A stretch of DNA of 64,000 bases. It comes from a virus. Below the pieces are notes generated by a model. It was not told where the DNA came from. It did not search any database and saw only the letters and a list, made by a program, of their open reading frames with translations. Position 1 is the stretch's first letter; each line of letters opens with the position of its first letter. Both the position numbers and the translations under genes were made by a program. The DNA is taken from the IMG/VR virus record IMGVR_UViG_3300018079_000001, positions 1-64,000 of that record. One strand, given 5' to 3'. Shown one piece after another: positions 19,184 to 61,934 of this stretch.

Positions 19184-21666
19184 AAGTTACCGTAATCGGC
19201 TACTCGGGCAACGATCACATTGTTATTGGTGAGCTACGTGTACTCGGTGGCAAAATTGTCGTCGCGCCGAATCCTCACTACCGAAATCAAGATCGCGCCC
19301 GTAAAATACTAGAGTCGATTGCAACTGACCCTGTACGGTGGGCTGGACAAAAAATCGGTCCGGACAAAGTACAGGTGTTTATGAATCTGTTGCATACGCA
19401 GTATAGTGGCTCGTACTTGCGTGTTACTAAGCCGGAGATTGACAGCCTGAAGAAGTGGGATGAAGCTGACCATCCGCGCGTGGGCTCTGGCGAACACGGT
19501 GGCGAGTTCACGTCTGGTGGTGGCGGTGGAGCGGGAGCGGCTGACGACACGAAATCCTGGACGAAGGACAAGGCCCCGGCAGACCAGGAGCGCGCTGCGA
19601 AGTTGGAAACGGAGCGACAGACGGCGGTCGGCAACGTCGAGAAGCTGGTGTCAGGCGTAACCGGCTCCGACGAGAGTGGTCAGGCGTTGACGAGTCCGTC
19701 CCAAGTCAAGACGTGGGCGAACATGCCGCAAGAGTGGCAGGGGCACGCGGCGAACGGATTCATCAGTGACTACGTCAATGGCAACATGCCCGCCAGTGAA
19801 GAGTGGCAATCCAAACCCCACACGTGGGACCAGGTGCCGCAAGATTGGAAGGACAAGGGCAAAGCGGACTATCTGACCGGGTACGCTGTTGGTGATAGCC
19901 CTACGCCCGCTGCTCTTGCCGAGGGCGTGGCGAATTGGGAGAAGATGCCCGATCAGGAAAAGCTGGAATACTCACAGCAGATGTACAACCAAAATGCTGC
20001 AAAGGAACGGCAGAGACTCACTGACGAGGCGGGCAGCCTGTGGGGTGACATGGGCGACGAGGGTAAGCTAAACTTCGCGCAAACCGAGGCGAAGGACTTC
20101 CCTGAGTTAGCGGTCGAGGAAGATGACCCTGACTCCGACGAGCCGCCGAGTGAAATGTCTGTTGATGATTTCGGTGATTGGGACGGGCTTCCGAGCGACT
20201 GGCAGGAGAAGACAAAAGAGAAGTGGATGGAGGACTCCTACGCCGAGTTCGAGCAGAGCGAGAAGGAATCATTCGAGCCCGACCGCGACTACCACGAAGA
20301 GCGCGTCTCCGAGGACGAGGATGCGGTGCACGCCCTGATCAAGGAAATTCCCGAGGAAAACTACATCTACCCTGGCATGGGCGAGTACGAGACACCGGAG
20401 GATGCGGAGGAAGGTGGAGCCGAGGACAAACGCCGCGAGAAAGAGTGGCAGGAAAACTTCGACCTGAAGGCGTCGGTCGATGACGGCGCGTTCACCTGGG
20501 ACAAAAATGGCGAACTGACTGTGGATACTGACAGGTTGGTCTTCCACAAAAATCCTCACGAGGATGACGCGCAGCAGATGATCCCTGGCGTTGATCGCGC
20601 GGAGTTGTCGAACGCGTACAAGAAAAGCCAGTGGGAAGGCGTTGCTCGGGACTACGAAAAAGAGTTCAAGGCGAAGTTCGAGAAGGCCGTCGAGAAGAGC
20701 ATGGAGGAAGAGTCCGAGAACTACGAACCGGACAAATCCTCTGTCGAAGAGTACATGGAGCAGCAGTGGGATGACGGCTTTAGCGACAAGCAGAAGTTCA
20801 AGCACGCGCAGAACTACCTGTCTGACGAGACGGTCGAGAGTGATCAAGAATCGACAGCAGGCAGTGGTGGACCAATCCGCATACCGAAAGCCTTCGAGTT
20901 GTTCAGCGGCGAAGACGAAAAGAACCCTGGCGACTACAAGATGACCGGGCGCCTGGGTCGTGCGCTCACCATCGCCCGTGCCGAGCAGATTGCGAAAGAA
21001 CGCGGCATCGAGGATTTTGGTGGTGTCAGTTCGATGGAGAGTTTGGGCAACACGCTGTGGGAGGGCTGGAAAGGTTCGTCCACAAACAGCCACGGTAAGT
21101 TGCTTCAGGTTGCGTCGGCGGACGAGTTGGGCGGCAATTTGCAACCGTGGCTCGCTGAGGAAGCAGACGCGATTCGCAAGAACAGAGGATACCCGGCCGC
21201 AAAGGCATACGTGCGCGGGCTGTGGGAAACTTCACAGTACCTCATGCACAAGGCGGGCATGAAGGAACTGGACATATACCGGGGCATCATGGTGGACGGC
21301 GACAAGTTGGCAGCAGAAAAAACCGAGCGCGTCGTGGTACACGGCAACGATATGGAGCGTATTGCAGAAAAGCACTTCGACCAGAACGGAGCCGCGTCGT
21401 TCACAATGAAGCGCGACGTGGCAAACGGCTGGAACGGCATCGGGCACAACATGCCGCCGAACCCGAAGCGGGTCGTGCTTCGCGCTCGTGTCCCTTTAAC
21501 GGCTGTGCTTGCGCTGCCCGCGTATGGCAAGAACTACCACGAGGAAAAGGAAGTCGTCGTGGTTGGCACCCCGTGGAAGAAGTGGGACGCCTGGAAGCAC
21601 AAGGCCCCGACGATTGGGGAGACGGAATCAGACGTAGCGCTCAAATGGAGGACGGCTCGTGCTTGA
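19180..21666 (+). CDS. Head-associated polyprotein 2: small N-terminal domain + HPR motif + shared helical domain + C-terminal ADP-ribosyltransferase-like domain
   Basis: TTG start with RBS GGAGG; WDEADHPR..GGEF; IYRG, ASFT, HEEKEVVV (R-S-ExE). Confidence 0.75.
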   Translation: MKVTVIGYSGNDHIVIGELRVLGGKIVVAPNPHYRNQDRARKILESIATDPVRWAGQKIGPDKVQVFMNLLHTQYSGSYLRVTKPEIDSLKKWDEADHPRVGSGEHGGEFTSGGGGGAGAADDTKSWTKDKAPADQERAAKLETERQTAVGNVEKLVSGVTGSDESGQALTSPSQVKTWANMPQEWQGHAANGFISDYVNGNMPASEEWQSKPHTWDQVPQDWKDKGKADYLTGYAVGDSPTPAALAEGVANWEKMPDQEKLEYSQQMYNQNAAKERQRLTDEAGSLWGDMGDEGKLNFAQTEAKDFPELAVEEDDPDSDEPPSEMSVDDFGDWDGLPSDWQEKTKEKWMEDSYAEFEQSEKESFEPDRDYHEERVSEDEDAVHALIKEIPEENYIYPGMGEYETPEDAEEGGAEDKRREKEWQENFDLKASVDDGAFTWDKNGELTVDTDRLVFHKNPHEDDAQQMIPGVDRAELSNAYKKSQWEGVARDYEKEFKAKFEKAVEKSMEEESENYEPDKSSVEEYMEQQWDDGFSDKQKFKHAQNYLSDETVESDQESTAGSGGPIRIPKAFELFSGEDEKNPGDYKMTGRLGRALTIARAEQIAKERGIEDFGGVSSMESLGNTLWEGWKGSSTNSHGKLLQVASADELGGNLQPWLAEEADAIRKNRGYPAAKAYVRGLWETSQYLMHKAGMKELDIYRGIMVDGDKLAAEKTERVVVHGNDMERIAEKHFDQNGAASFTMKRDVANGWNGIGHNMPPNPKRVVLRARVPLTAVLALPAYGKNYHEEKEVVVVGTPWKKWDAWKHKAPTIGETESDVALKWRTARA

Positions 21667-24088
21667 GATAGAACTGGACAAACCTGGCGACCCTCACTGG
21701 CTGTCCAAGCCGAAGAAGCTGCGCAAGTTCGACCCGAGTCAGCAGCGTGACGAGGACGGCAAATGGTCGGAGACGGGTGCGGGAGGTGGCGCGACCACCG
21801 AACCGAAGGGCAGCGCAGGTCACGGATACGAGGCCCCGAAGGGGCAGGCTAGCTTACCGGCCGAAGCCAAGGACATCGCGGACGAATACGATTCCGCCCC
21901 CGAGATCGGACCAGGCGCAAAGGAAGCGTGGGCGAAGCTGTCGGCTGACATTGACCGGGACTTCGCCGAGATCACCAAGACGGTTGCAGTCGAGAAGGTC
22001 ACAGGTCAGCCGTACTCGTCGATCGACGAGATGTTCGCCGACATCGACGCTGGCCGCTTCAAGGTGACGACCGACTACTCGCAGCATCCGCTGTGGTCGG
22101 AGGATCAGAACTGGAAGTTTCGTGTGGTGCATGACTACTACGGACACTACAAGACGGGCGACAAGAGCGTGGACTTCTCGCTGGAAGGCGAACGTAGCGC
22201 GTTCTTGAGCCAGGCGCAACGGTCAAGCGACCTGGACGCGCGTCGGGCGTTGCAGACCGAAGTATACGGGCAAGCATCCGCGTTCTACAAGAACGGTGCA
22301 TTTGGCAAGCAGAAGGTGTATCTGCCGGGAGCGGACGTTGCGGAGCGGTGGACCGCGCCGGCAGCGCAGGACTTCATCACGGCGCGTGACCGGAACCCTC
22401 GGGGGGACTTCTTCTCGCACCTGGAGCCGGGCGACCTGAAAGGCTACAAGCTGATCATGAATGAGTCGCACTCGGCGGGAGCGGCCGTTGCGCCCGATGG
22501 CGACATTCAGAACGTGTTCCGCAACCCCAACTCGCCGAAGGGTGCCGGGACAGCCGCATTGCACGAGGCTGTACGGCAGGGCGGGCTGATGCTCGACGCG
22601 TACGAATACGAGACTCCGGGTCAGCCGGGCCTGCCAGACGTGTACCGCAAGGCGGGGTTCGTCGAGACGGGCCGCATGAAGTTCAACCCGGCGTACCGTC
22701 CAGCCTGGGGACCAGAGCGGCGGCCAGATGTTGTGTTCATGGCTTACGTGGGTGGCGATCAATCGAAGTCGCCGAAGTCAGACCACTACTACCAGCCGCA
22801 CGAATGGGATCGTGCTAAGAAGGAATCCCTGGCCTCGGCCGATGCGCCAGGCGAGAGCGAAATAGCACGGCAACTGCGTGAGCAGCGCTCCCGTCGCGCA
22901 TATCAGGATGTGAACAGGCCGAAGCTGCCGCCAGAGGTAGATCAGGCACTGAGAGGGCTCGGCAAGTCAGTGCTCTCGTCCAAGGACCGTGAGGACCTGA
23001 AAATCAAAACGAACAAAAAGAAGTGGGGTGGTCGGCCACATGTCTTCACTGCCGCCGAGTGGACGCACCCGAACGGACATCCGCGCTGCGTTCGTTGCGG
23101 CGACGAGGAACCGAGTGACGGGCTGTGTATGCCGGAGTTGCTGAAGTGGGCAACCATGCTCGATGTTGCCATGTCTGGCACTCATCAGGTGGATAGTGGT
23201 AAAATAAAAGAGAAGGGAACCTTCATGTCGAAGAGTTGGATCGCAGAGTTTCATGCCGATTGCATCACAAAGGGAGCCGCCTGCTCCGTGAAGTGGCCAG
23301 TGTGCCCCGAGAAGAAAGCTGCCGTCGAGAAGTACATCCGCGAAGAGGGTGGGAAGTTCAACGTCTACTCCGAGGACGGCAAGAAACTCGGCACGCATTC
23401 GACCCGAGCCGAGGCCGCCGCGCAGCTTCGCGCAATCGAGGCGAACAAGGACGCGACGCGCGGATATCCCGAGTTGGGTGTACCTCCGGCTCCAGTCGCG
23501 ATGAAGGCATTGCAGGGTGCATGGAACGCGTACGCGAAGTCGGTCGGGATCGTGTTCAAATCTGAGGAAGTTCAAGCTGAGCCGGTCGAAAAGGGCGTGT
23601 ACCGAGTCGCGGCTCCGGGCGGGAAGTGGGTATACTTCGCGGTCGAGGGTGACCAAGCGGGGCGGGTCGAGTATCAGCGGAAGAACGGTATGCTGGCCCC
23701 GGTGGTGAAGGCCGAGAAGCAGCGCTATACCCTCGGCGCCGTGTACGCGCCGGGTGAGACGGATTTTCATGGCGACACCATGACCGAAGTCGAATTGGAA
23801 AAGGCGGCGTGGGCGTTCGCACAGAAGGACGGGCTCACGGGCCGCGTCGGGCTCATGCACCAATCAGGCACGGAAAAAGCGGGCAAGGTAGTCGAGTCAT
23901 ACGTCTACCGTGGTCCGGTGTGGAAGTTCAAGGACACCTCGGGTGTGACTCAGACGATCACACCGGGCACGTGGATGCTCGGTGTCGTGTGGGAACCGGA
24001 GGGCTGGAATCAAATCGAACGTGGCAGCGTGCGGGGTTATTCACTCCAAGGGGTTGCCCGCAAGTTCGCCAATGGGGAGGAAGTATAA
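21659..24088 (+). CDS. Head-associated polyprotein 3: HDxxGH domain + GNAT-like domain + Zn finger + C-terminal XkdF-type prohead serine protease
   Basis: FRVVHDYYGH; GDIQNVF..KGAG..GG.MLDAY..YRKAGF; protease GAVYAPG..D.HGD, MH, VVESY, GTWMLG, GYSLQG. Confidence 0.8.
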   Translation: MLEIELDKPGDPHWLSKPKKLRKFDPSQQRDEDGKWSETGAGGGATTEPKGSAGHGYEAPKGQASLPAEAKDIADEYDSAPEIGPGAKEAWAKLSADIDRDFAEITKTVAVEKVTGQPYSSIDEMFADIDAGRFKVTTDYSQHPLWSEDQNWKFRVVHDYYGHYKTGDKSVDFSLEGERSAFLSQAQRSSDLDARRALQTEVYGQASAFYKNGAFGKQKVYLPGADVAERWTAPAAQDFITARDRNPRGDFFSHLEPGDLKGYKLIMNESHSAGAAVAPDGDIQNVFRNPNSPKGAGTAALHEAVRQGGLMLDAYEYETPGQPGLPDVYRKAGFVETGRMKFNPAYRPAWGPERRPDVVFMAYVGGDQSKSPKSDHYYQPHEWDRAKKESLASADAPGESEIARQLREQRSRRAYQDVNRPKLPPEVDQALRGLGKSVLSSKDREDLKIKTNKKKWGGRPHVFTAAEWTHPNGHPRCVRCGDEEPSDGLCMPELLKWATMLDVAMSGTHQVDSGKIKEKGTFMSKSWIAEFHADCITKGAACSVKWPVCPEKKAAVEKYIREEGGKFNVYSEDGKKLGTHSTRAEAAAQLRAIEANKDATRGYPELGVPPAPVAMKALQGAWNAYAKSVGIVFKSEEVQAEPVEKGVYRVAAPGGKWVYFAVEGDQAGRVEYQRKNGMLAPVVKAEKQRYTLGAVYAPGETDFHGDTMTEVELEKAAWAFAQKDGLTGRVGLMHQSGTEKAGKVVESYVYRGPVWKFKDTSGVTQTITPGTWMLGVVWEPEGWNQIERGSVRGYSLQGVARKFANGEEV
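23196..23213 (+). promoter_or_regulatory. Promoter motif A copy 3, internal to polyprotein 3, before in-frame ATG 23225
   Basis: GTGGTAAAATAAAAGAGA followed by AGGGA and an in-frame ATG. Confidence 0.65.
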
Positions 24089-50620: not shown

Positions 50621-51493
50621 ATGACCCGCTACTTCTGCAAGGACTGCGGTGCACGTCAGGGAAGCAAGCGCGAGTTGAATGAGCACGTGTGTCGAAAGCG
50701 GGTCAGGAATGAGATACCCGAGGGTCAGGAACTACCGCCAGTTGGGGTCAGGAATTTGACCCAACCACTACAGGAGGGGGTCAGGAACCTGACCCTTGGT
50801 GGGTCAGGAATCGGGTCAGGAAATGAAATCCTGACCCGAGAATTATCTAATGAAGACGATACGTTGTCTAATGGCGCGGGGGTCAGGAATGATGAAAGTC
50901 GTTGTCCTCCTCTTCTTGATCTCTCTAAAGAGAGAGGAACGCACACGGGTCAGGAGTGGTGTGCGATCTCTGATCCTGAGCCGATCAAAAGTGCCCACGC
51001 CCGAGAGCAGGAAGCCATCGCATACGTCTCGTCTCGGACGGAGTACCTGACAGCGTGGGAGAGATCATTCTTTATTGGGGTTCAATTCACAAACCAGACT
51101 CTATCGAGCAAGCAGAAGTTGACCCTGTTCGAGATCGAAGCCAAGATCAAGAGTCATGAGCATGGACTCGAAGAGTGGCGTGAGGCTGACGCACGGGCTC
51201 AGCACCCTCTGAAGAAGCTACAGCCCGATCACCCGAAGGCTGACTGCAAGTATTGCCAGGCCGAGGCTGAATCAGCCGTTCAGGCCAAAGCCGATTTCGA
51301 GGAAGACATGGCCGAGTTGCTTGTGCTCGGGGAAGAGATCAAGGTCCGTCGTGCCCGTGAGGCCCTACAAGCCTCTAGGACGCGTCCAGGACACCGACCC
51401 GCTGGTAGGACCCTCCTGGACTCCTCAAAGCGGCGCATTACCCCCAATCCGCCCCGATTTGCCCCCAAGGAAGAGGGACCCGCCAATGCCTGA
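50621..51493 (+). CDS. Hypothetical replication-associated protein containing iteron array
   Basis: N-terminal C2HC-type finger (CKDC..H.C); lies between two helicases. Confidence 0.55.
   Translation: MTRYFCKDCGARQGSKRELNEHVCRKRVRNEIPEGQELPPVGVRNLTQPLQEGVRNLTLGGSGIGSGNEILTRELSNEDDTLSNGAGVRNDESRCPPLLDLSKERGTHTGQEWCAISDPEPIKSAHAREQEAIAYVSSRTEYLTAWERSFFIGVQFTNQTLSSKQKLTLFEIEAKIKSHEHGLEEWREADARAQHPLKKLQPDHPKADCKYCQAEAESAVQAKADFEEDMAELLVLGEEIKVRRAREALQASRTRPGHRPAGRTLLDSSKRRITPNPPRFAPKEEGPANA
50700..50955. repeat. Iteron-like array: 8 direct GGGTCAGGA copies plus inverted copies; putative replication origin
   Basis: Copies at 50700, 50722, 50745, 50778, 50801, 50813, 50880, 50947; inverted CCTGACCC at 50788 and 50830. 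Confidence 0.75.
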
Positions 51494-52865
51494 TCGACAG
51501 TTCACGGACGGAATCGCCCGGCTGGTCCTGGTCGCAGCGGTCTATGGCGACCTGTTGACTGCCCTGCCAGGAGCCTTCGCCCCGGACCTGTTCGGGGAGT
51601 CGAGTGCCCGCCAGAGGATCGCGGAAGCCGTCGCGCGGTACGCTGAGCAGTACCCTGGCACCCGGCCGGCGCCGGAGTTCATCGACGACCTGATCAGTAA
51701 GGATATGGCGAACCGGAGCGAAGCCGAGCAGGATGCCGTCGCTGACGAGTGGGGCTTTGTCCAGGCGGCAGACCTGCCCGAAGACACGGGCTACCTGTAT
51801 CAGCAAGTCAGGGAGTGGATCGAGTTTAGGCGGACCCGAGACGCTCTTATAGCCGCCCGGGAAGTGATGGACAAGGACGGTGGGCTCGAAGAAGCCCGGG
51901 AGATTCTAGCGAAGGTCGAGCCGCTGAAGCCGCGTATCGAGATCAAGCAGGAGATTTTCTGGCTCCGCGACGCCGAGGAACGGCTGACCCTGTGGCGCGA
52001 GGGTATCACGATGGGGGAGCGCATCCCGACCCGAATGTCAGCGTTCGATGCAGCGGTGAGCGGTGGACCGACGAAGAAAGAGGCGTGGTATTTCCTGGCC
52101 CCGCCGAAGGGGGGCAAGACGACGTTCCTGCTGAACGTCGCACGCGGTGCTGCGCGTGGTGGTTACGGGGTGTACTACAACACGTTCGAGATGCAGGGCA
52201 TGCGCACCGCGCTCCGCTTCGATCAGATGATGGCGAAGTCAAGACGCGAAGAATTGGCAGGCAAGGATGGTGAGATTGGGAACATCGCCCCCCTCGAAGC
52301 GGCGATCAAGGGCATGACGGCAATCGGGAGCGGAGAGATCGTGTTCACTCGCCGCGCAACGCAGGCGAAGAGCAGCGTGCGGCAGACGGCGCAGGACATC
52401 AAGCGGCTACGGAACGATGGCGTGCAAATCGACGTGGTCGTCTTCGACTATCTGAACATCATGGGTGGCTCGAAGAACGAGTCGGAGCTACGACGCGAGT
52501 TGTTCGGCATCTCGTATGAGATCGCGGACCTGGCGCAAGAACTGGACGTGCTTGTGTGGTCGGCGGCCCTCGTGACCCGGCAAGCCGTGGACAAGTATCC
52601 TATCCGCAAGACAGACATCGCCGAGGCGTTCGGTGTGATCGCAGCACTCGATGGTGCCGTCGCCATTTGCTCCCCGCCTATCCTCGTGGCGAACAACTTC
52701 CGCCGACTGTACATCGCAGCAGCGCGTGAAGAGCGTGACGAAGTGATGGCGGGTGACTATCTGGTCGAGTTCGATCGAATGCGTATTCGACCCGCCGACT
52801 CGCAGCGCGTGGATCAGCTACTCGAATCGACACGCAAGCGGAAGAACGGGGAGGAAACGGAATGA
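51486..52865 (+). CDS. DnaB-like (SF4) replicative helicase
   Basis: APPKGGKTTFLLNVA, TFEM, VVVFDYLNIM, LA.ELDVLVWSA, DIAEAF. Confidence 0.88.
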   Translation: MPDRQFTDGIARLVLVAAVYGDLLTALPGAFAPDLFGESSARQRIAEAVARYAEQYPGTRPAPEFIDDLISKDMANRSEAEQDAVADEWGFVQAADLPEDTGYLYQQVREWIEFRRTRDALIAAREVMDKDGGLEEAREILAKVEPLKPRIEIKQEIFWLRDAEERLTLWREGITMGERIPTRMSAFDAAVSGGPTKKEAWYFLAPPKGGKTTFLLNVARGAARGGYGVYYNTFEMQGMRTALRFDQMMAKSRREELAGKDGEIGNIAPLEAAIKGMTAIGSGEIVFTRRATQAKSSVRQTAQDIKRLRNDGVQIDVVVFDYLNIMGGSKNESELRRELFGISYEIADLAQELDVLVWSAALVTRQAVDKYPIRKTDIAEAFGVIAALDGAVAICSPPILVANNFRRLYIAAAREERDEVMAGDYLVEFDRMRIRPADSQRVDQLLESTRKRKNGEETE

Positions 52866-56458: not shown

Positions 56459-58093
56459 ATGGAACTGCTGAAAGCATTCAAGGCCGCCCGCGTGGCGGCG
56501 GTGCCGATTGTCGCCGTGTCGTGCTTCGACCCGGCCGACGTGATCAAGAAGATTCGCGCGTCGAACGAAGAGGGCGCGAAGACGCCGATCCCGCTTGTGC
56601 AGTGGGATGCAATGGACGGAATGAAGGGCCTGAACACGGCGGGCAAGGCGGCGGTAGCTGCCGTGCTGAAGGGTGACGAGAAAGACTGGCCGGGCATGAC
56701 GAGCAACCCAGGTGCCGCGCTCGGGTTCATGAGCGAGCTACCCGGCGAGCAACGCGAGGGCGGTCGGCCGGACGGTGCCATTCAAATGCGCGGTACGATC
56801 GTGTTCGCCCTGAACCTGCACAACTACTTCGAGGATCGGCCGAGCAAGGAAAACGCGCCGATCGTGCAGGGCGTGTGGAATCTGCGGGACCGGTTCAAGG
56901 CCAACCGGCGCACGCTCGTGGTGCTCGGGCCTGGCTTCAAATTTCCGGCTGAGATCGCGAATGACGTGATCAGCCTGGACGTGCCGATGCCGACCGACGA
57001 GGAACTGACCGCGATCATCGCCAAGGAAGTTTCGGGTGTCGCGGGCCTCGCTGCGCTGGACGAGAAGACGATGCAGTCCGCCGTTGATGCGGTGCGCGGG
57101 CTGCCGAGCGCGTTCACGGTCGAGCAGGTATCGCGGATGTCCATGACGAAAGAGGGCATCGCGATCGACGAGTTGTGGGAGCGGAAGATCAGTACGATGG
57201 AGATGACTTCGGGCCTGAGCGTGGACCGGGGAACCGAGACGTTCGATGATGCAGGCGGGCTGGACCAGTTTAAGACGTTCGGTCTGCGGCTGGTCAAGAG
57301 CGAGAAGTCGCCGCTTCTGTACGTGCGCATTGACGAGATCGAGAAGTTTCTCGGTGGACTCGGTGGTGGCGGTAACGCGGGCGACAACACGGGCGTGTCT
57401 CAGGATGCGCTCGGGGTGTTCCTGCGCGAGATGGAAGACAACGGCTGGAATGGCCTGATCGCACTCGGCCATGCCGGCGCGGGAAAGTCGCTGATCACGA
57501 AGGGCCTCGCGAATACCGCCTCGAAGCTGACCGGGCGGCGGGTCCTGAGTGTGGCTCTGGACCTGGGTGCGACGAAGAACAGCCTGCTCGGTAAGAGTGA
57601 AGAGAGGTTGCGCACTCTATTCAAGGTGCTCAAGGCGGTCGGGGGTAAGCGCGTGTGCTTCATCGCCACGTGTAACGACCTGGACGTGATGCCGCCTGCT
57701 CTGCGTCGGCGGTTCAAACTCGGTATGTGGATGTTCGACTTGCCGACCCGCCCGCAGAAAGACGCAATCTGGAAGATCAACCTGACGAAGTTTGGTCTGA
57801 AGAAGCCGGCACGGCTGCCGGACGATACGGACTGGACTGGCGCAGACATTCGTAACGTGTGTGAGCAGGCCGATCTGCTTGGTTGCTCGCTGGACGAGGC
57901 GTGCAACTACGTCGTATTCGTCGCGAAGAACGACCCGGACAGCATCTCGCGTCTTCGGGCCAAGGCGGACGGGAAGTACCTGGACGCCAACCGGCCTGGT
58001 GTGTATCGGGCCGCGCGACAGGAAGAGCTAGTGCCGAGCCTGGACGCTCCAACGCAGGGGCGAGCCAAGGTGAGCACGGACGAGGAAGTCTAA
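56459..58093 (+). CDS. Ycf46-like AAA+ ATPase with rearranged Walker motifs; ends RAKVSTDEEV
   Basis: TFDDAGGL, VRIDEIEK, GHAGAGKS, LDLG..SLLGKSE, IATCN..PPALRRRF, WTGADIRNVC. Confidence 0.85.
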   Translation: MELLKAFKAARVAAVPIVAVSCFDPADVIKKIRASNEEGAKTPIPLVQWDAMDGMKGLNTAGKAAVAAVLKGDEKDWPGMTSNPGAALGFMSELPGEQREGGRPDGAIQMRGTIVFALNLHNYFEDRPSKENAPIVQGVWNLRDRFKANRRTLVVLGPGFKFPAEIANDVISLDVPMPTDEELTAIIAKEVSGVAGLAALDEKTMQSAVDAVRGLPSAFTVEQVSRMSMTKEGIAIDELWERKISTMEMTSGLSVDRGTETFDDAGGLDQFKTFGLRLVKSEKSPLLYVRIDEIEKFLGGLGGGGNAGDNTGVSQDALGVFLREMEDNGWNGLIALGHAGAGKSLITKGLANTASKLTGRRVLSVALDLGATKNSLLGKSEERLRTLFKVLKAVGGKRVCFIATCNDLDVMPPALRRRFKLGMWMFDLPTRPQKDAIWKINLTKFGLKKPARLPDDTDWTGADIRNVCEQADLLGCSLDEACNYVVFVAKNDPDSISRLRAKADGKYLDANRPGVYRAARQEELVPSLDAPTQGRAKVSTDEEV

Positions 58094-58200
58094 CCGAGTG
58101 GAGGGTGCCCGGGCGCAAGGCAGGTAACGCGGACACCGCTGAAGGCCGAAAGCCTGAAGGCGACTAGGTGCCGCCCCGTAAACTCACAACGGAGGGAAAC

Positions 58201-58407
58201 ATGGCAGACAGTTTCGAGATTCAGATTCTCGATGACGGCACGATCAAGAGCACGACGGGTAAGGTTGGCGCGCAGAACCACCAGAGTGCCGAGGGCTTCT
58301 TCGGGATGCTGGCCCGCGTGATGGGCGGCAAGACGACCCGTAACCGTCGCGGCGAACACGCTCACGTGCACTCGCACGGTGAGGGCGAGCAACACGAGCA
58401 CGCGTAA
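58201..58407 (+). CDS. DUF2997-like small protein (His-rich tail)
   Basis: FEIQILDDGTIK...LARVMGG; adjacent to the Ycf46-like ATPase; RBS GGAGGG. Confidence 0.55.
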   Translation: MADSFEIQILDDGTIKSTTGKVGAQNHQSAEGFFGMLARVMGGKTTRNRRGEHAHVHSHGEGEQHEHA

Positions 58408-58444
58408 CCTTTAACCGGGCGAGAGCCTGAGACAGGAGCCACAT

Positions 58445-59389
58445 ATGAGCACGATCCCAACAACGGCAACGGTCATGGAGCAGAGCGTCGCGTTTGTCCT
58501 GGCCTTCTCACGCCCCGGCGTCAAGCGGGTCGTGCGGAAGTCGCAGGTGTCCGAGAAGAGCGAGGGCACCGACAACGCGGTTGTCGTGGATGCCGACAAG
58601 AGCATGATCAACGTCGGCAAGGAAATCATTGACTCCCCGCAACTGCGGGCGATCATCTCGCGCGATGGCGCGGTCCGCCAGTGGGTGAAGGCGCGCAGTC
58701 TGCCGAGTCCGCTGTTCAAGTCGGGTACGACGATCGTGCCGACTGTGCTCGTCGAGGCGGTGTACGAGTACCTCGAAAAGTCGAAGGCTGATCGGGACGC
58801 CGACATCGCGACGTTCCTTGAAGCCTACCCTGGCCTGGTCGAGGAAGCGAAGACGAAACTAGGGCCGCTGTTCGACGCTCGTCAATACCCCGCCGCGACG
58901 GCACTCAAAGGCGCGTTCGAGATGCGGTGGAACATCATCGAATTCGGGACGCCCGGCAAGCTGAAGACTATCAGCAAGGCTCTGTACGATAAAGAGCGCG
59001 CCAAGGCCGAGGCCGAGTGGGCGGACGCCACGTCGCAGATTCGCAACGCGCTTCGCGTGGCGATGGCGGAACTGGTCGAGCACATGATCGAGAAGCTGTC
59101 GTCGGACAACGACGGCAAGGCGAAGACGTTCCGCGATAGCATGGTCAAGAACCTGACCGAGTTTTCCGATTTGTTCAACGCACGCAACCTGACGGGCGAC
59201 TCGGAGTTGGCAGCACTCGTCGAGAAGGCGCAGAAGGTCATGAGCGGCGTGGACGCGAAGTCACTGCGGACTGACGCCGACATCAAGCAGCGTGTGGCTG
59301 ATGGTTTCGCGGAGATCAAGGCGAACCTCGACACGATGGTGATTGACCGCCCGACGCGGGCGTTGACGATCGCTGACGAGGAAGTCTAA
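58445..59389 (+). CDS. DUF3150-like helical protein; ends RALTIADEEV
   Basis: F...YP.LVEEAK..LG.LFD..QYP, FRDSMV.NL.EF..LF..RNLT.D.EL. Confidence 0.6.
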   Translation: MSTIPTTATVMEQSVAFVLAFSRPGVKRVVRKSQVSEKSEGTDNAVVVDADKSMINVGKEIIDSPQLRAIISRDGAVRQWVKARSLPSPLFKSGTTIVPTVLVEAVYEYLEKSKADRDADIATFLEAYPGLVEEAKTKLGPLFDARQYPAATALKGAFEMRWNIIEFGTPGKLKTISKALYDKERAKAEAEWADATSQIRNALRVAMAELVEHMIEKLSSDNDGKAKTFRDSMVKNLTEFSDLFNARNLTGDSELAALVEKAQKVMSGVDAKSLRTDADIKQRVADGFAEIKANLDTMVIDRPTRALTIADEEV

Positions 59390-59472
59390 CAGCGGGACGG
59401 GCGGGGGTTCCTGGGCACCAGGTTCAGAGACGGGCACCGTCTCGCCCCCGCCCGGTACTCATGGAGGGAACA

Positions 59473-59658
59473 ATGGCAGCGAAAGATCGGACGCGAGCAG
59501 GCGCGTACATGATCGCAACACCTTCGGTGCGAATTGCGCATCGACACTACACGCATCTGTGTCCTGCAACGGGGAGGCCGTTGACGTTGTCGTGGTTTGA
59601 TTCGCCGTGGTTTGAGATGATGCGGCGCATGGTGAAGGGTCTGAGACGATCTAACTGA
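59473..59658 (+). CDS. Small hypothetical protein
   Basis: RBS GGAGGG before ATG. Confidence 0.4.
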   Translation: MAAKDRTRAGAYMIATPSVRIAHRHYTHLCPATGRPLTLSWFDSPWFEMMRRMVKGLRRSN

Positions 59659-59886
59659 GAACGAAAACGAGACGGGCAGCATGGCGTTGCCCGTTCACAA
59701 ATGGAGATGACCTATGGCAGTGAGTGACAAGACAGTCCGGGGCGCGTACGAGATACCGGCCGCGCAGGTTGCGCTACAGCATTACGCGCCGTGGTTCGAG
59801 TTGCTGCGAGCGGGCGAGGCTTTGGTTCAAGGGGGTAAACATTTACTCCGGGCGTTGCGCGCCTGGCGAAAGAGGGAGGGTGTCTG

Positions 59887-60207
59887 ATGCCGTGTGATAG
59901 CGTCGTCCTGAACACAGTCGAATTGGACAAGGTCGGTGACCACGATCTACTCGAAAAGGCTCTGGCTGGAGAATTCGGCACCGTGCGCCGCAACGGTACG
60001 ACGATGACGTTCACGTACCAGGGACGCACAGTCACGATCCGCAACGGCCGCGCCGAGTCGAGCCTGAGCGAGAGCACGCTGCAACAATTGGTCGGCCAGG
60101 TGAAGCAGGCGTACAGCCGCGAGGCCGTGCACATGGCGGCGAAGCGGTTCGGGTGGATGATCAAACCCGGCAGGGACAAGAACAACTTCACGGTTGTGAA
60201 GAACTAG
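59887..60207 (+). CDS. DUF1257/Ycf35-like protein
   Basis: MPC...D.DLLEKAL...VKQAYS.EAV...AKRFGW. Confidence 0.6.
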   Translation: MPCDSVVLNTVELDKVGDHDLLEKALAGEFGTVRRNGTTMTFTYQGRTVTIRNGRAESSLSESTLQQLVGQVKQAYSREAVHMAAKRFGWMIKPGRDKNNFTVVKN

Positions 60208-60208
60208 C

Positions 60209-60703
60209 ATGTGGCCGGGCGAGTTTCCTGACGATGCGGGTAGTGCCAGTGGTGACTGGACTGTCCGCCTGGTTGGCCGTGCGCTGATTGAAGCCACGGC
60301 GGCGAGCACGGGTAAACCGTTCATGGCGCGGATTGTAGGACGTGACAATACGTACACGTGGCAGCGTCAGTGGCTCAAGCCGAAGTGGGAGTTTCCCGCG
60401 CGCAACGCGAACCCCGCCGCGATCGTGCGGCTGGTCCTGCCTGTGTCTGCTGTCGGCAAGTTGCCGGCTGCTCTGGACATACGGTGGGGGCCAGCGACGG
60501 GCGGCACGGGTATCGACGTGAAGAACGGACAGGCGTTTCGCTACTGCGGGTATCGTAGTCTGTTTATCCTGGACGCGGCTGGCTTGCGGCAGGCGACTGA
60601 GCAGCACGTGACGTGGCTGCTCGACGAGGGCATCGTGGTTTCCGGACCACCACGTCGTGAGCCGGGCTCGCGCCCGGTGCTGAGGTTCGATGAAGAAGTT
60701 TGA
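60209..60703 (+). CDS. Hypothetical protein; ends RPVLRFDEEV
   Basis: KPFMARIVGRD..Y.WQRQWL. Confidence 0.6.
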   Translation: MWPGEFPDDAGSASGDWTVRLVGRALIEATAASTGKPFMARIVGRDNTYTWQRQWLKPKWEFPARNANPAAIVRLVLPVSAVGKLPAALDIRWGPATGGTGIDVKNGQAFRYCGYRSLFILDAAGLRQATEQHVTWLLDEGIVVSGPPRREPGSRPVLRFDEEV

Positions 60704-60732
60704 CGGGCCAGCGGCCTGAGAAAGGGACGGCA

Positions 60733-61299
60733 ATGGCGACAACGGTAGAAAAACGACAATTCAAAAGCAGCCGCCCCGGATCGGCGGCACTGTATACCGC
60801 CGTCGTGTACGACGACGGCACCGCGTCCTGCGACTGCCCTGGCTGGCGGTTCCAGCGTTCAGGCCAGCCGCGAGGCTGCAAGCACACCGCCACCATGTTG
60901 ACCGGCACAACGGTCAAGGTGGTGACGAACGCCGAGATGGCGCGCATGGCGTTGCGTGGTGAGCAGTTCAACGTGATCAAGCGGTGGACGATTGCGCAGA
61001 GCGGCGCACAGATGGTGAGCCTGCGTATGGGGGAGAGCGCGTCTGCCGAGCAGACGGTGCGTCGGATCATGAAAGAGGATAACGCACCGCAGTCTTACCC
61101 GGCGCGACGGGATCGCTGGTCGCAGGCTGAGGGGAAGTGGGTGTCGGTGCCGAAGAAGATGACGCCCGAGATGCGCACGCCTGATCCACTGGCGGCGCGG
61201 GACTTCTTTCCGTCGAAACCGAAGCCGCAGACGACGCGGCGTGCAGAGCAGATCGAACAACCAACACGAGCACGCCTAGCGTTCGATGAAGAGGTATAG
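60733..61299 (+). CDS. SWIM zinc-finger protein; ends RARLAFDEEV
   Basis: SS....YT......SCDCPGWRF.....CKH. Confidence 0.75.
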   Translation: MATTVEKRQFKSSRPGSAALYTAVVYDDGTASCDCPGWRFQRSGQPRGCKHTATMLTGTTVKVVTNAEMARMALRGEQFNVIKRWTIAQSGAQMVSLRMGESASAEQTVRRIMKEDNAPQSYPARRDRWSQAEGKWVSVPKKMTPEMRTPDPLAARDFFPSKPKPQTTRRAEQIEQPTRARLAFDEEV

Positions 61300-61301
61300 T
61301 C

Positions 61302-61685
61302 ATGATAGTTCTGAAAGAGATGGACCCGTTCAAGCTGAAAGAGTACGTGCACGCTATTCAGCGGTGCGGTGATCACCCGTTGCCGGGTCTGACCGACAGT
61401 GACGTGCTCGACAAGGTTGTTGAAATTCTCGACTGCTACATCGAATCGGCCGAGACGTACGAAGACACGTCGTCGAAGATCATCTTCCTGCTCGACGATG
61501 GGCGGGTCGGTGTGTTCGAAGAGTGGTCCGACTCGTCGGGTCACGGCTGACAGTGCGGCGCATCGTGGGGGCTGTATGCTTCCAAAGACGCAGCATGCAC
61601 TGAGGGCAAGCTGGTATGGGATGAAACCGCGACGCTAATCGAGCGGCTGCAACGGGCGCCGATTGCGTTCGATGAAGAGGTATGA
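61302..61685 (+). CDS. Hypothetical protein with in-frame UGA at 61548-61550 (candidate selenocysteine); extended product ends RAPIAFDEEV
   Basis: Frame stays open for 44 codons after TGA (QCGASWGLY...) and ends with the shared DEEV tag. Confidence 0.65.
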
Positions 61686-61766: not shown

Positions 61767-61843
61767 CGGGGAATCGTCTAGCGGCCAAGGATGCCGGTCC
61801 TTCAAACCGGAAGACGCGGGTTCGAATCCCGCTTCCCCGACCA
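61767..61843 (+). tRNA. tRNA-Glu(TTC) with atypical C33
   Basis: CGGGGAA/TTCCCCG acceptor, CCGGT-CCTTCAA-ACCGG anticodon arm, GCGGG-TTCGAAT-CCCGC T arm, encoded CCA. Confidence 0.8.
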
Positions 61844-61844
61844 C

Positions 61845-61934
61845 GTAAGCGATGGGCGAATTGGCTGAGCCCGCCTGTCTGTAAAACAGGCGCAGTGACC
61901 CTGCATGGAGGTTCGATTCCTCCCGCTTGCACCA
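61845..61934 (+). tRNA. tRNA-Tyr(GTA), long variable arm
   Basis: GTAAGCG/CGCTTGC acceptor, CCTGT-CTGTAAA-ACAGG anticodon arm, GCAG/CTGC variable arm, T arm, encoded CCA. Confidence 0.88.

Follow-up and report, generated by a model that had tools for sequence, protein, structure and literature searches.

At least twelve otherwise unrelated proteins of one phage share a C-terminal peptide that is ancestral to a conserved AAA+ ATPase module

Why should an AAA+ ATPase and several proteins that do not resemble it end in the same ten residues? The question is raised by a stretch of 64,000 nt (the window) from an uncultured phage, whose genome is complete at 101,821 bp with a 123-bp terminal repeat. 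A blastn search of the phage DNA against phage records gave no matches.

A common peptide ends at least twelve phage proteins

The initial annotation had reported five C-termini of the type R-x5-DEEV, and all were found where it had placed them, i.e. at the ORF ends 58093 (RAKVSTDEEV), 59389 (RALTIADEEV), 60703 (RPVLRFDEEV), 61299 (RARLAFDEEV), and 61685 (RAPIAFDEEV). The Arg is at position -10 from the C-terminus in all five. As had also been claimed, the ATPase carries the tail itself. The five genes are:

56459..58093, + strand: predicted two-tier Cdc48/p97-like AAA+ ATPase, 544 aa, tail GRAKVSTDEEV at 58058-58090
58445..59389, + strand: DUF3150-like helical protein ("B"), 314 aa, tail TRALTIADEEV
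60209..60703, + strand: 164-aa protein, family not assigned, tail SRPVLRFDEEV
60700..61299, + strand: SWIM-finger-like protein (CDC...CKH), start probably the ATG at 60733, tail TRARLAFDEEV
61302..61685, + strand: 127-codon frame with an in-frame TGA at 61548-61550, putative tail QRAPIAFDEEV

The last of these tails can be reached solely by reading through the TGA, and no in-frame ATG, GTG, or TTG follows it. A hairpin at and after the TGA has a folding energy of -31.7 kcal/mol (z -2.3), and Rfam revealed no SECIS element. The SWIM-finger-like protein contains the CDC...CKH pattern, and its PF04434 match (E 0.006, 16.6 bits) is below the cut-off of 19.6, as is that of a tailed homolog from L026 (18.4 bits).

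The description of five clustered proteins holds for the window, but it is an undercount for the genome, because seven further carriers lie 24-37 kb away. In a six-frame translation of all 101,821 bp, DEEV occurs eight times, and seven of the eight instances are immediately 5' of a stop codon, all on the + strand. The carriers outside the window, given with the genome coordinates of their stops, are:

stop 85565: GRAPRPQDGEEV
stop 86080: GRAPLALEEEV
stop 89933: VRAPLSFDGEV
stop 90170: VRARLAFDEEV
stop 90646: GRAPRPRDGEEV
stop 90965: KRAPLDFDEDV
stop 98260: GRASFNLDEEV

At least 12 otherwise unrelated proteins therefore share the peptide R-A-x-x-x-x-D-E-E-V. Counted against the about 122 + strand genes of the whole genome, the 12 firm carriers (the 61685 frame included) mean that about a tenth of the phage's proteins bear one address. 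Two degenerate candidates were found, both within the window:

21659..24088, + strand: 809-aa protein with a C-terminal XkdF-type protease domain, end ARKFANGEEV, doubtful as a carrier
51321..52865, + strand: DnaB-like helicase (PF03796, E 9e-14), end RKRKNGEETE, possibly a degenerate tail

The ortholog of the helicase in L003/L004 ends in RKRAKNDEGDV, and that of the 164-aa protein in RAKIRFDDDDV.

Pairwise BLASTP comparison of the 12 carriers without their last 12 residues gave a best E value of 0.017, i.e. no significant similarity, and the tail codons vary (GAC GAG GAA GTC; GAT GAA GAA GTT; GAT GAA GAG GTA). Because the carriers are dissimilar apart from the tail and the codons differ, the motif is selected and acts at the protein level, as the initial annotation had concluded. 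Zinc-knuckle motifs are enriched among the carriers (6 of the 11 small ones versus 7 of 82; Fisher p 7e-4). The hydrophobic residues are at -8/-6 in the DUF3150-like protein and at -7/-5 in most other carriers, an offset of one residue. The 293-aa carrier yielded no relatives when searched for, and in the relatives L100-L102, with terminase identities of 66-68%, the carrier gene located after the terminase in this phage is missing.

The tail is part of a conserved module of four genes

The module to which the tail is ancestral encodes the Cdc48/p97-like ATPase and DUF1257-like, DUF2997-like, and DUF3150-like proteins; a SWIM-finger protein that bears the tail is frequently present alongside. 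The module is present on 8 viral contigs and at about 80 bacterial loci (Acidobacteriota, Nitrospira, and Planctomycetota), with locus counts of 82 for the ATPase, 64 for the DUF3150-like protein, 65 for DUF1257, and 54 for DUF2997 (canonical and His-rich clusters together). Two core members have no tail here, nor in any other genome examined:

58201..58407, + strand: DUF2997-like small protein with a His-rich C-terminus
59887..60207, + strand: DUF1257-like protein, 106 aa

Both partners had been proposed before, and their assignment is supported by synteny, iterative HMM search, Pfam matches of syntenic homologs, and an Atlas structural match. The DUF2997-like gene keeps its position between the ATPase and DUF3150-like genes in relatives. 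The phage protein does not match PF11211, and the match of the syntenic protein of L015 (E 0.0018, 18.5 bits) is below the cut-off of 24.1. The DUF1257-like protein does not match PF06868 at E <= 5, and its syntenic L015 homolog matches with E 8e-10. Iterative HMM search ties it to canonical MSH-type DUF1257 proteins (49 loci), and its Atlas structural neighbour is labelled DUF1257 (TM 0.74). Its alignment (A3) shows an invariant N-terminal M-P-C, Y76, and G89-W90; a search for longer fused versions returned none, which is weak evidence. The DUF3150-like protein does not match PF11348, and two homologs approach the cut-off of 24.9 (P0019, E 3e-5, 23.9 bits; P0023, E 9e-5, 22.4 bits). Fold searches with its AF2 model (pLDDT 77) retrieved nothing more specific than generic helical bundles (best E 0.36 in Foldseek, Z up to 9.5 in VIA), and PDB profile searches with the three small or helical module proteins gave no matches.

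The ATPase matches PF00004 (E 2e-7, 31.9 bits, cut-off 21.2) and contains the P-loop GHAGAGKS. Its AF2 model (pLDDT 91.6) matches D1-D2 of p97/Cdc48/NVL/Rix7 in Foldseek (E 4e-12, probability 1.0), and according to this model it is a classical-clade AAA+ protein with two stacked AAA tiers. The sole hhhhDE-like stretch, VRIDEIEK (residues 289-296, with invariant E293 and K296), precedes the P-loop (337-343), so that the Walker A/B order looks permuted. The pore-loop motif is hydrophobic, S-L-[LV]-G-x-S-E. In the models of both the ATPase and the DUF3150-like protein, the tails (residues 531-544 in the ATPase) are disordered behind confident folds and do not dock in cis.

Searches with PADLOC and NCBIfam defence models gave weak partial AAA matches (IetA/IteA, TRIP13), which are far below the cut-offs. 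Literature searches on DUF3150, DUF1257, DUF2997, Ycf46, and shared C-terminal motifs retrieved nothing relevant; the literature searched contains no functional study of the module, which is widespread but unstudied.

The tail is conserved and varies jointly within genomes

The comparison of homologs that the initial annotation had suggested shows that an R-x-h-x-h tail (h = hydrophobic) is retained in the ATPase, DUF3150-like, and SWIM families, even at identities of about 30%, and that its ending varies jointly within each genome. PF00004 is present in all listed ATPase homologs, and most of the 120 listed end in G-R-[RA]-h-x-h-x-E-E-x; some Terriglobia homologs end in PLTVMPPSKSEA and lack the motif. 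Nearly all of 29 DUF3150-like homologs have an R-x-h-x-h-x-acidic C-terminus, to about 33% identity, which the two most distant (32%) lack. Among 150 representatives of the SWIM-protein family, about half carry the R-x-h-x-h tail; FDEEV or DEEV is the ending of at least 10 representatives.

The tails of ATPase and DUF3150-like protein are GRAFRxxE and RKFRFxEE in Acidobacteria, RRxVxRxPSxN and RRNILRRPR in Planctomycetes, and RAMRSLG and RAIRIRG in L006. In a permutation test that ignores shared ancestry, the two tails of matched pairs were more similar than those of permuted pairs, with 10 exceptions in 5000 permutations. Single genomes place variants of their own on additional proteins, i.e. 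SRRVRLRD, ARRVRLRD (a WGR protein), and SRRVRVRS in L017; GGRSYNLDE, GGGRGYFLDES (the large terminase), and GKRKYNFDEDL in L009; and TRAISFEED, RRAIRLED, KRPITLED, and KRAMKLEE in G001, the pattern of which matched none of the non-module ORFs among 12,477 background ORFs. Close relatives end in DEEV, DENV, DETV, or DDDDV, which shows that the ending drifts. The net charge of the module proteins versus that of the tail was not decisive and is confounded by ancestry.

The bacterial module is located in mobile islands adjoining ssb, a primase-type zinc finger gene, helicase, and even an extra dnaN. No capsid gene is among the genes examined within 10 kb of the module in bacterial islands; in Nitrospira moscoviensis, for example, it adjoins merA, RNR, and dnaN.

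A proposed docking function and its alternatives

We infer binding, a receptor, and a consequence for the carriers from these observations. In our judgement, the tail is probably a co-evolving peptide that docks all of its carriers on a single partner, which is most likely inside the module. It would be a short linear motif that ends a disordered linker, with a conserved core of Arg followed by alternating hydrophobic residues (R-x-h-x-h) and a lineage-specific ending, here D-E-E-V-COOH. All tails would plug into a single binding site, presumably by beta-strand addition. In this phage, the address has been extended to no fewer than ten additional proteins, and the zinc-knuckle carriers would fit adaptors or clients that are brought to the ATPase machine.

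The DUF1257/DUF2997 pair is our tentative first choice for the docking site. The conserved but degenerate D1 tier of the ATPase is a possible but more doubtful site, and the DUF3150 core a distinctly improbable one; the remaining weight falls on something else, a host protein included. A phylum-specific host hub would likewise produce lineage-specific tails. If the pair is the reader, this would also bear on the unexplained ycf35 and ycf46 of plastids and cyanobacteria. In practice, the peptide of 10-12 residues can be used as bait for the receptor and as a search key for the client set of each genome, and the tail offers a direct experimental handle on a module that occurs in several bacterial phyla as well as in mobile islands and many large phages.

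A wider reading of docking, which we put forward as speculative and rather unlikely in its entirety, is that the module is an address-based remodelling system of phages and mobile elements, in which a genome-specific C-terminal peptide replaces ubiquitin. The Cdc48-like motor would gather a changeable set of DNA-bound machines (helicase, terminase) and zinc-finger adaptors, and would then assemble, extract, or recycle them in genome establishment and replication, with the DUF1257/DUF2997 pair as the reader.

Alternatively, the tail could be a degron, by which the ATPase threads carriers through its pore to unfold or extract them, comparable to the way in which acidic tubulin tails are engaged by katanin and spastin. 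The ATPase's own tail would then act as a pseudo-substrate or limit its activity. The Cdc48-like fold with its hydrophobic pore-loop motif, the terminal and disordered tails, and the DNA-bound machines among carriers here and elsewhere (DnaB-like helicase, terminase) are all compatible with this. However, the charge of the tail is not mirrored in the pore loop, the sequence of which is the same in acidic-tail and basic-tail lineages, and the motor itself and its structural partner DUF3150 are tagged in nearly all genomes, which would be odd for a destruction signal. We regard a degron as unlikely.

Slightly less credible still is docking on a host hub (sliding clamp, SSB, protease adaptor, or TPR/PDZ protein) in place of a module protein. 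The tail ending varies by host phylum and the bacterial islands contain the replication-type neighbours named above, as expected for such a hub, and on paper E-E-V-COOH has the form of a class III PDZ ligand. However, the tail resembles neither the clamp motif QL[SD]LF nor the SSB tip DDDIPF. The TPR or PDZ reader that had been suggested initially is not supported, as the phage genome encodes neither, nor a clamp. The C-termini of relatives are EED, EE, or even RRPR, which means that a free acidic-Val end is not the conserved feature, and the drift among close relatives points in the same direction. Such a lack of conservation in the last residues makes it unlikely that the free end is what is read.

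A signal for loading carriers into the head for injection, akin to encapsulin cargo peptides or the HK97 protease tail, is very improbable. The end of the XkdF-type prohead protease domain protein would fit it, but most of this "tail" lies within the PF14550 domain (E 1e-20, residues 684-803); furthermore, the carriers are non-structural, and module and tails occur in bacterial islands such as that of N. moscoviensis. Finally, a nucleotide-level cause, i.e. the Shine-Dalgarno motif of the next gene (GAGGA/GAGGT in the D-E-E-V codons) or a repeated DNA element, would agree with a next start codon within 15 nt of, or overlapping, about half of the carriers, but it is largely refuted by the codon differences, the spacers of 38-108 nt after the ATPase, DUF3150-like, J, and L genes, the Arg-Ala at -10/-9 and hydrophobic positions that it leaves unexplained, and the retention of the tail in homologs with other neighbours.

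Comparison with known systems

Four known peptide ligands were considered and rejected. The HbYX proteasome-docking tail agrees neither with the E-E-V ends of this phage nor with the EED, EE, or RPR found in relatives. For the EEVD/TPR clamp, the end is DEEV and the complete phage genome contains no PF13432 match. The class III PDZ pattern is present in this phage only, relatives ending in D, E, or R, and the phage has no PDZ_2 match. For the beta-clamp-binding motif, no carrier tail contains QL[SD]LF, the invariant position is occupied by Arg, and the phage has neither PF00712 nor PF02768.

Several systems are nevertheless similar in principle. HbYX (PAN/Rpt/Cdc48) and GQYL (mycobacterial Mpa and Bpa) are likewise disordered C-terminal peptides on a Cdc48-like AAA+ ring that are shared with an unrelated second protein, both being addressed to the same site. 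Here, in contrast, there is no Hb-Y-X or GQYL, a dozen proteins are carriers, and no 20S proteasome gene was seen among the phage genes scanned, about half of the total. The p97/Cdc48 cofactor motifs (VIM, VBM, SHP box) are Arg-rich and dock unrelated adaptors on a two-tier AAA+ protein, which has its own tail read by PUB/PUL. They differ in that they bind the p97 N domain, whereas the phage ATPase begins directly at the D1-like tier; moreover, they have no sequence relationship to the motif here, which is confined to the C-terminus. In ESCRT-III, C-terminal MIM motifs on helical proteins recruit the AAA+ remodeller Vps4 via its MIT domain, but here there is no MIT domain, the carriers are not paralogs, and the ATPase itself is tailed. 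The EEVD of Hsp70 and Hsp90 is likewise an acidic tail shared by two machines with one reader, the TPR clamp, but the DEEV end is not conserved in relatives and the phage has no TPR protein.

The closest parallel in gene content is found in cyanobacteria and plastids, where the same families recur together as Ycf46 (AAA), Ycf35 (DUF1257), and DUF2997, in contrast to which the phage DUF proteins are too diverged for direct Pfam matches. To our knowledge, no mechanism is known for these genes. DUF2997 and ycf35 are neighbours in cyanobacteria (PMC4284462). If the address-based remodelling reading were true, it would provide the first mechanism for the orphan cyanobacterial and plastid ycf46, ycf35, and DUF2997.

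Twelve proteins of the phage carry a common C-terminal tail

The genome is represented by one contig of 101,821 bp with a 123-bp terminal direct repeat and is therefore complete; the window comprises its first 64 kb. The initial annotation had described five window-encoded proteins ending with Arg-x5-DEEV, and the ORF translations confirmed all five C-termini. In a six-frame translation of the whole genome, DEEV occurs eight times, and seven of these instances, all on the + strand, directly precede a stop codon. Seven further carriers are encoded outside the window, at 85-98 kb.

Features in the window
56459-58093, 544-aa ATPase, carrier
58201-58407, 68-aa DUF2997-like protein
58445-59389, 314-aa DUF3150-like protein (B), carrier
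59887-60207, 106-aa DUF1257-like protein
60700-61299, SWIM protein, carrier
61548-61550, in-frame TGA of the fifth carrier

Tails of the carriers encoded at 85-98 kb
GRAPRPQDGEEV
GRAPLALEEEV
VRAPLSFDGEV
VRARLAFDEEV
GRAPRPRDGEEV
KRAPLDFDEDV
GRASFNLDEEV

The consensus is [G/T]-R-A-[P/R]-[L/I]-x-[F/L]-[D/E]-[E/G]-E-V-COOH, and candidates for degenerate versions are the ends of a DnaB-like helicase (RKRKNGEETE) and of an XkdF-type protease domain protein (ARKFANGEEV). When the twelve carriers were compared without their tails, BLASTP revealed no pair at E < 0.01, and the codon choice within the tail varies between carriers. For about half of the tails the next start codon lies immediately downstream, so that GAGGA or GAGGT may double as a ribosome-binding site. 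An origin of the tail as a ribosome-binding site was largely rejected, because it leaves Arg-Ala at -10/-9 and the hydrophobic positions unexplained, and it also fails for four carriers that are followed by a spacer of 38-108 nt.

Two or more zinc-knuckle motifs are present in 6 of the 11 small carriers, compared with 7 of 82 non-carrier genes in a comparable size range (Fisher p 7e-4). One tailed zinc-knuckle gene (genome 97742-98260; 13742-14260 of the later stretch L002) is located directly 3' of the large terminase gene; it is absent from three relatives (L100-L102) with 66-68% identical terminases, and accessory carriers therefore turn over quickly.

The tail of the fifth carrier lies behind an in-frame TGA without a downstream start codon, and thus makes the protein a carrier only on read-through of the TGA. 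At window 61548-61625, the TGA has the context G-H-G-TGA-Q-C-G and marks the start of a hairpin (-31.7 kcal/mol, z -2.3); the 44 sense codons behind it lead to a perfect tail. Rfam detected no SECIS element, and 8 of the 12 carriers use TGA as an ordinary stop codon. Recoding, selenocysteine and a recent nonsense mutation are all possible.

Distribution of the module and conservation of the tail

The genes for the ATPase and the DUF1257-, DUF2997- and DUF3150-like proteins are grouped in all eight related viral loci, and likewise in most of about 80 bacterial loci, which belong to Acidobacteriota, Planctomycetota, Nitrospira (one of them on the N. moscoviensis chromosome) and other groups. Clustering counted 82 loci with the ATPase, 65 with DUF1257, 64 with B and 54 with DUF2997. 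The tail is part of this conserved four-gene module. A C-terminal R-x-h-x-h-x-acidic (h, hydrophobic) is retained in B homologs with identities between 100% and about 33%, and is missing from the two most distant ones (32% identity). Most ATPase homologs end with G-R-[RA]-h-x-h-x-E-E-x. In the SWIM-protein family, about half of 150 representatives have the same type of ending, which is FDEEV or DEEV in at least 10. DUF1257 and DUF2997 are core members of the module and are tailed in none of the genomes examined.

The bacterial contexts are island-like, with merA, ribonucleotide reductase, a primase-type zinc finger, an SNF2-like helicase, a DUF6094 methyltransferase, an extra dnaN and ssb as neighbours. 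The N. moscoviensis island encodes a merA-like reductase, a class II ribonucleotide reductase, a CHC2 zinc finger, an SNF2-like helicase, a DUF6094 methyltransferase and a second dnaN. In Acidobacteria, ssb (ending with DDVPF) follows the DUF3150-like gene at a distance between a few hundred bases and 2 kb.

Tails co-vary within genomes

Within one genome, the tails of the ATPase and B are alike.

Tails of ATPase and B
Acidobacteria: GRAFRxxE; RKFRFxEE
Planctomycetes: RRxVxRxPSxN; RRNILRRPR
Locus L006: RAMRSLG; RAIRIRG
Loci L005/L007: RRA...; RRA...
One contig pair (P0036, P0010): ...DETV; ...DETV

Matched pairs outscored the permuted ones except in 10 of 5000 permutations, or except in 81 of 5000 when the basic-tail group was left out, shared ancestry being uncontrolled in both cases. 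Other genomes place their own variant on additional proteins.

Tail variants of other genomes
L017: SRRVRLRD (B), ARRVRLRD (WGR-domain protein), SRRVRVRS
L009: GGRSYNLDE (B), GGGRGYFLDES (large terminase), GKRKYNFDEDL
L026: KRRITFD (B), KRKINLEED (SWIM), RPRRAISLD
G001 (a 108-kb relative): TRAISFEED (B), RRAIRLED, KRPITLED, KRAMKLEE

A genome-specific C-terminal motif shared within related phages, which had been proposed as a check, was thus found, e.g. in G001, the tail pattern of which retrieved only module proteins against 12,477 background ORFs.

Identity of the module proteins

Pfam and PHROG gave few direct matches. The 544-aa protein is an AAA+ ATPase: an AF2 model built from 94 homologs (pLDDT 91.6) has two stacked tiers, and Foldseek aligned it with p97, Cdc48, NVL and Rix7 at E 4e-12. 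Its C-terminal 14 residues are disordered. Upstream of the P-loop GHAGAGKS (window 57323-57490) lies the sole Walker-B-like stretch, VRIDEIEK, with an LREMED segment after it, and the P-loop segment is directly continuous with the sensor-1 strand CFIATCN. The 94 homologs keep this order, so that the active tier looks internally permuted.

B was modelled as a helical protein whose tail is disordered, and fold searches with the model yielded nothing informative; two B homologs score slightly below the Pfam cut-off of DUF3150. The 106-aa and 68-aa proteins match no Pfam model of their own. They are tied to DUF1257 and DUF2997 by synteny with canonical members, by iterative HMM search, by Pfam matches of syntenic homologs (E 8e-10 and 0.0018, respectively, the latter below the cut-off) and, for DUF1257, by an Atlas structural neighbour (TM 0.74). 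In place of the MSH of canonical members, an invariant M-P-C is found at the N-terminus of the DUF1257-like protein; in the DUF2997-like protein an N-H pair is invariant and the C-terminus is rich in His, with Cys in canonical members. These residues hint at a shared metal site.

Other genes of the phage

Genes for a dATP/dGTP diphosphohydrolase N-terminal domain, nucleoside 2-deoxyribosyltransferase, MazG and dCMP deaminase (genome 67425-80147; 3425-3943 and 14344-16144 of the later stretch L001) form a nucleotide-metabolism cluster that may point to DNA base modification. RtcB (E 5e-129) adjoins an RNA ligase (genome 81539-84176; L001 17539-20000), and tRNA-Glu and tRNA-Tyr genes are located at window 61767-61934; together, they look like a tRNA repair set. 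A 217-aa protein (genome 95508-96161; L002 11508-12161) contains HCDAGISRS, which fits the Cys-dependent phosphatase signature C-x5-R, and has no Pfam match at E <= 0.01.

Possible function of the tail

The simplest account is that the tail would be a docking peptide, through which the ATPase, B, the SWIM protein and a varying group of small proteins would gather at one site. The first candidates for its reader are DUF1257 and DUF2997, and the second is the D1 tier of the ATPase, which is degenerate although strongly conserved. In the AF2 models of the ATPase and B, the tails are not docked in cis. Alternatively, the tail is possibly a degron that is read by the ATPase pore; however, the pore loop is constant whatever the charge of the tail. 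Docking of the carriers on a host hub is a less likely possibility. Profile searches of the phage genome excluded a phage-encoded reader of the clamp, PDZ or TPR type. A capsid-loading signal is unlikely, because the examined neighbours of the module in bacterial islands are not capsid genes.

PADLOC and NCBIfam returned no matching system, and literature searches found no description of the module or the tail. The phage system belongs to none of the following classes, but a docking tail would work much like the HbYX and GQYL docking tails, the p97 cofactor motifs, the MIM-MIT pairs and the EEVD-TPR interaction.
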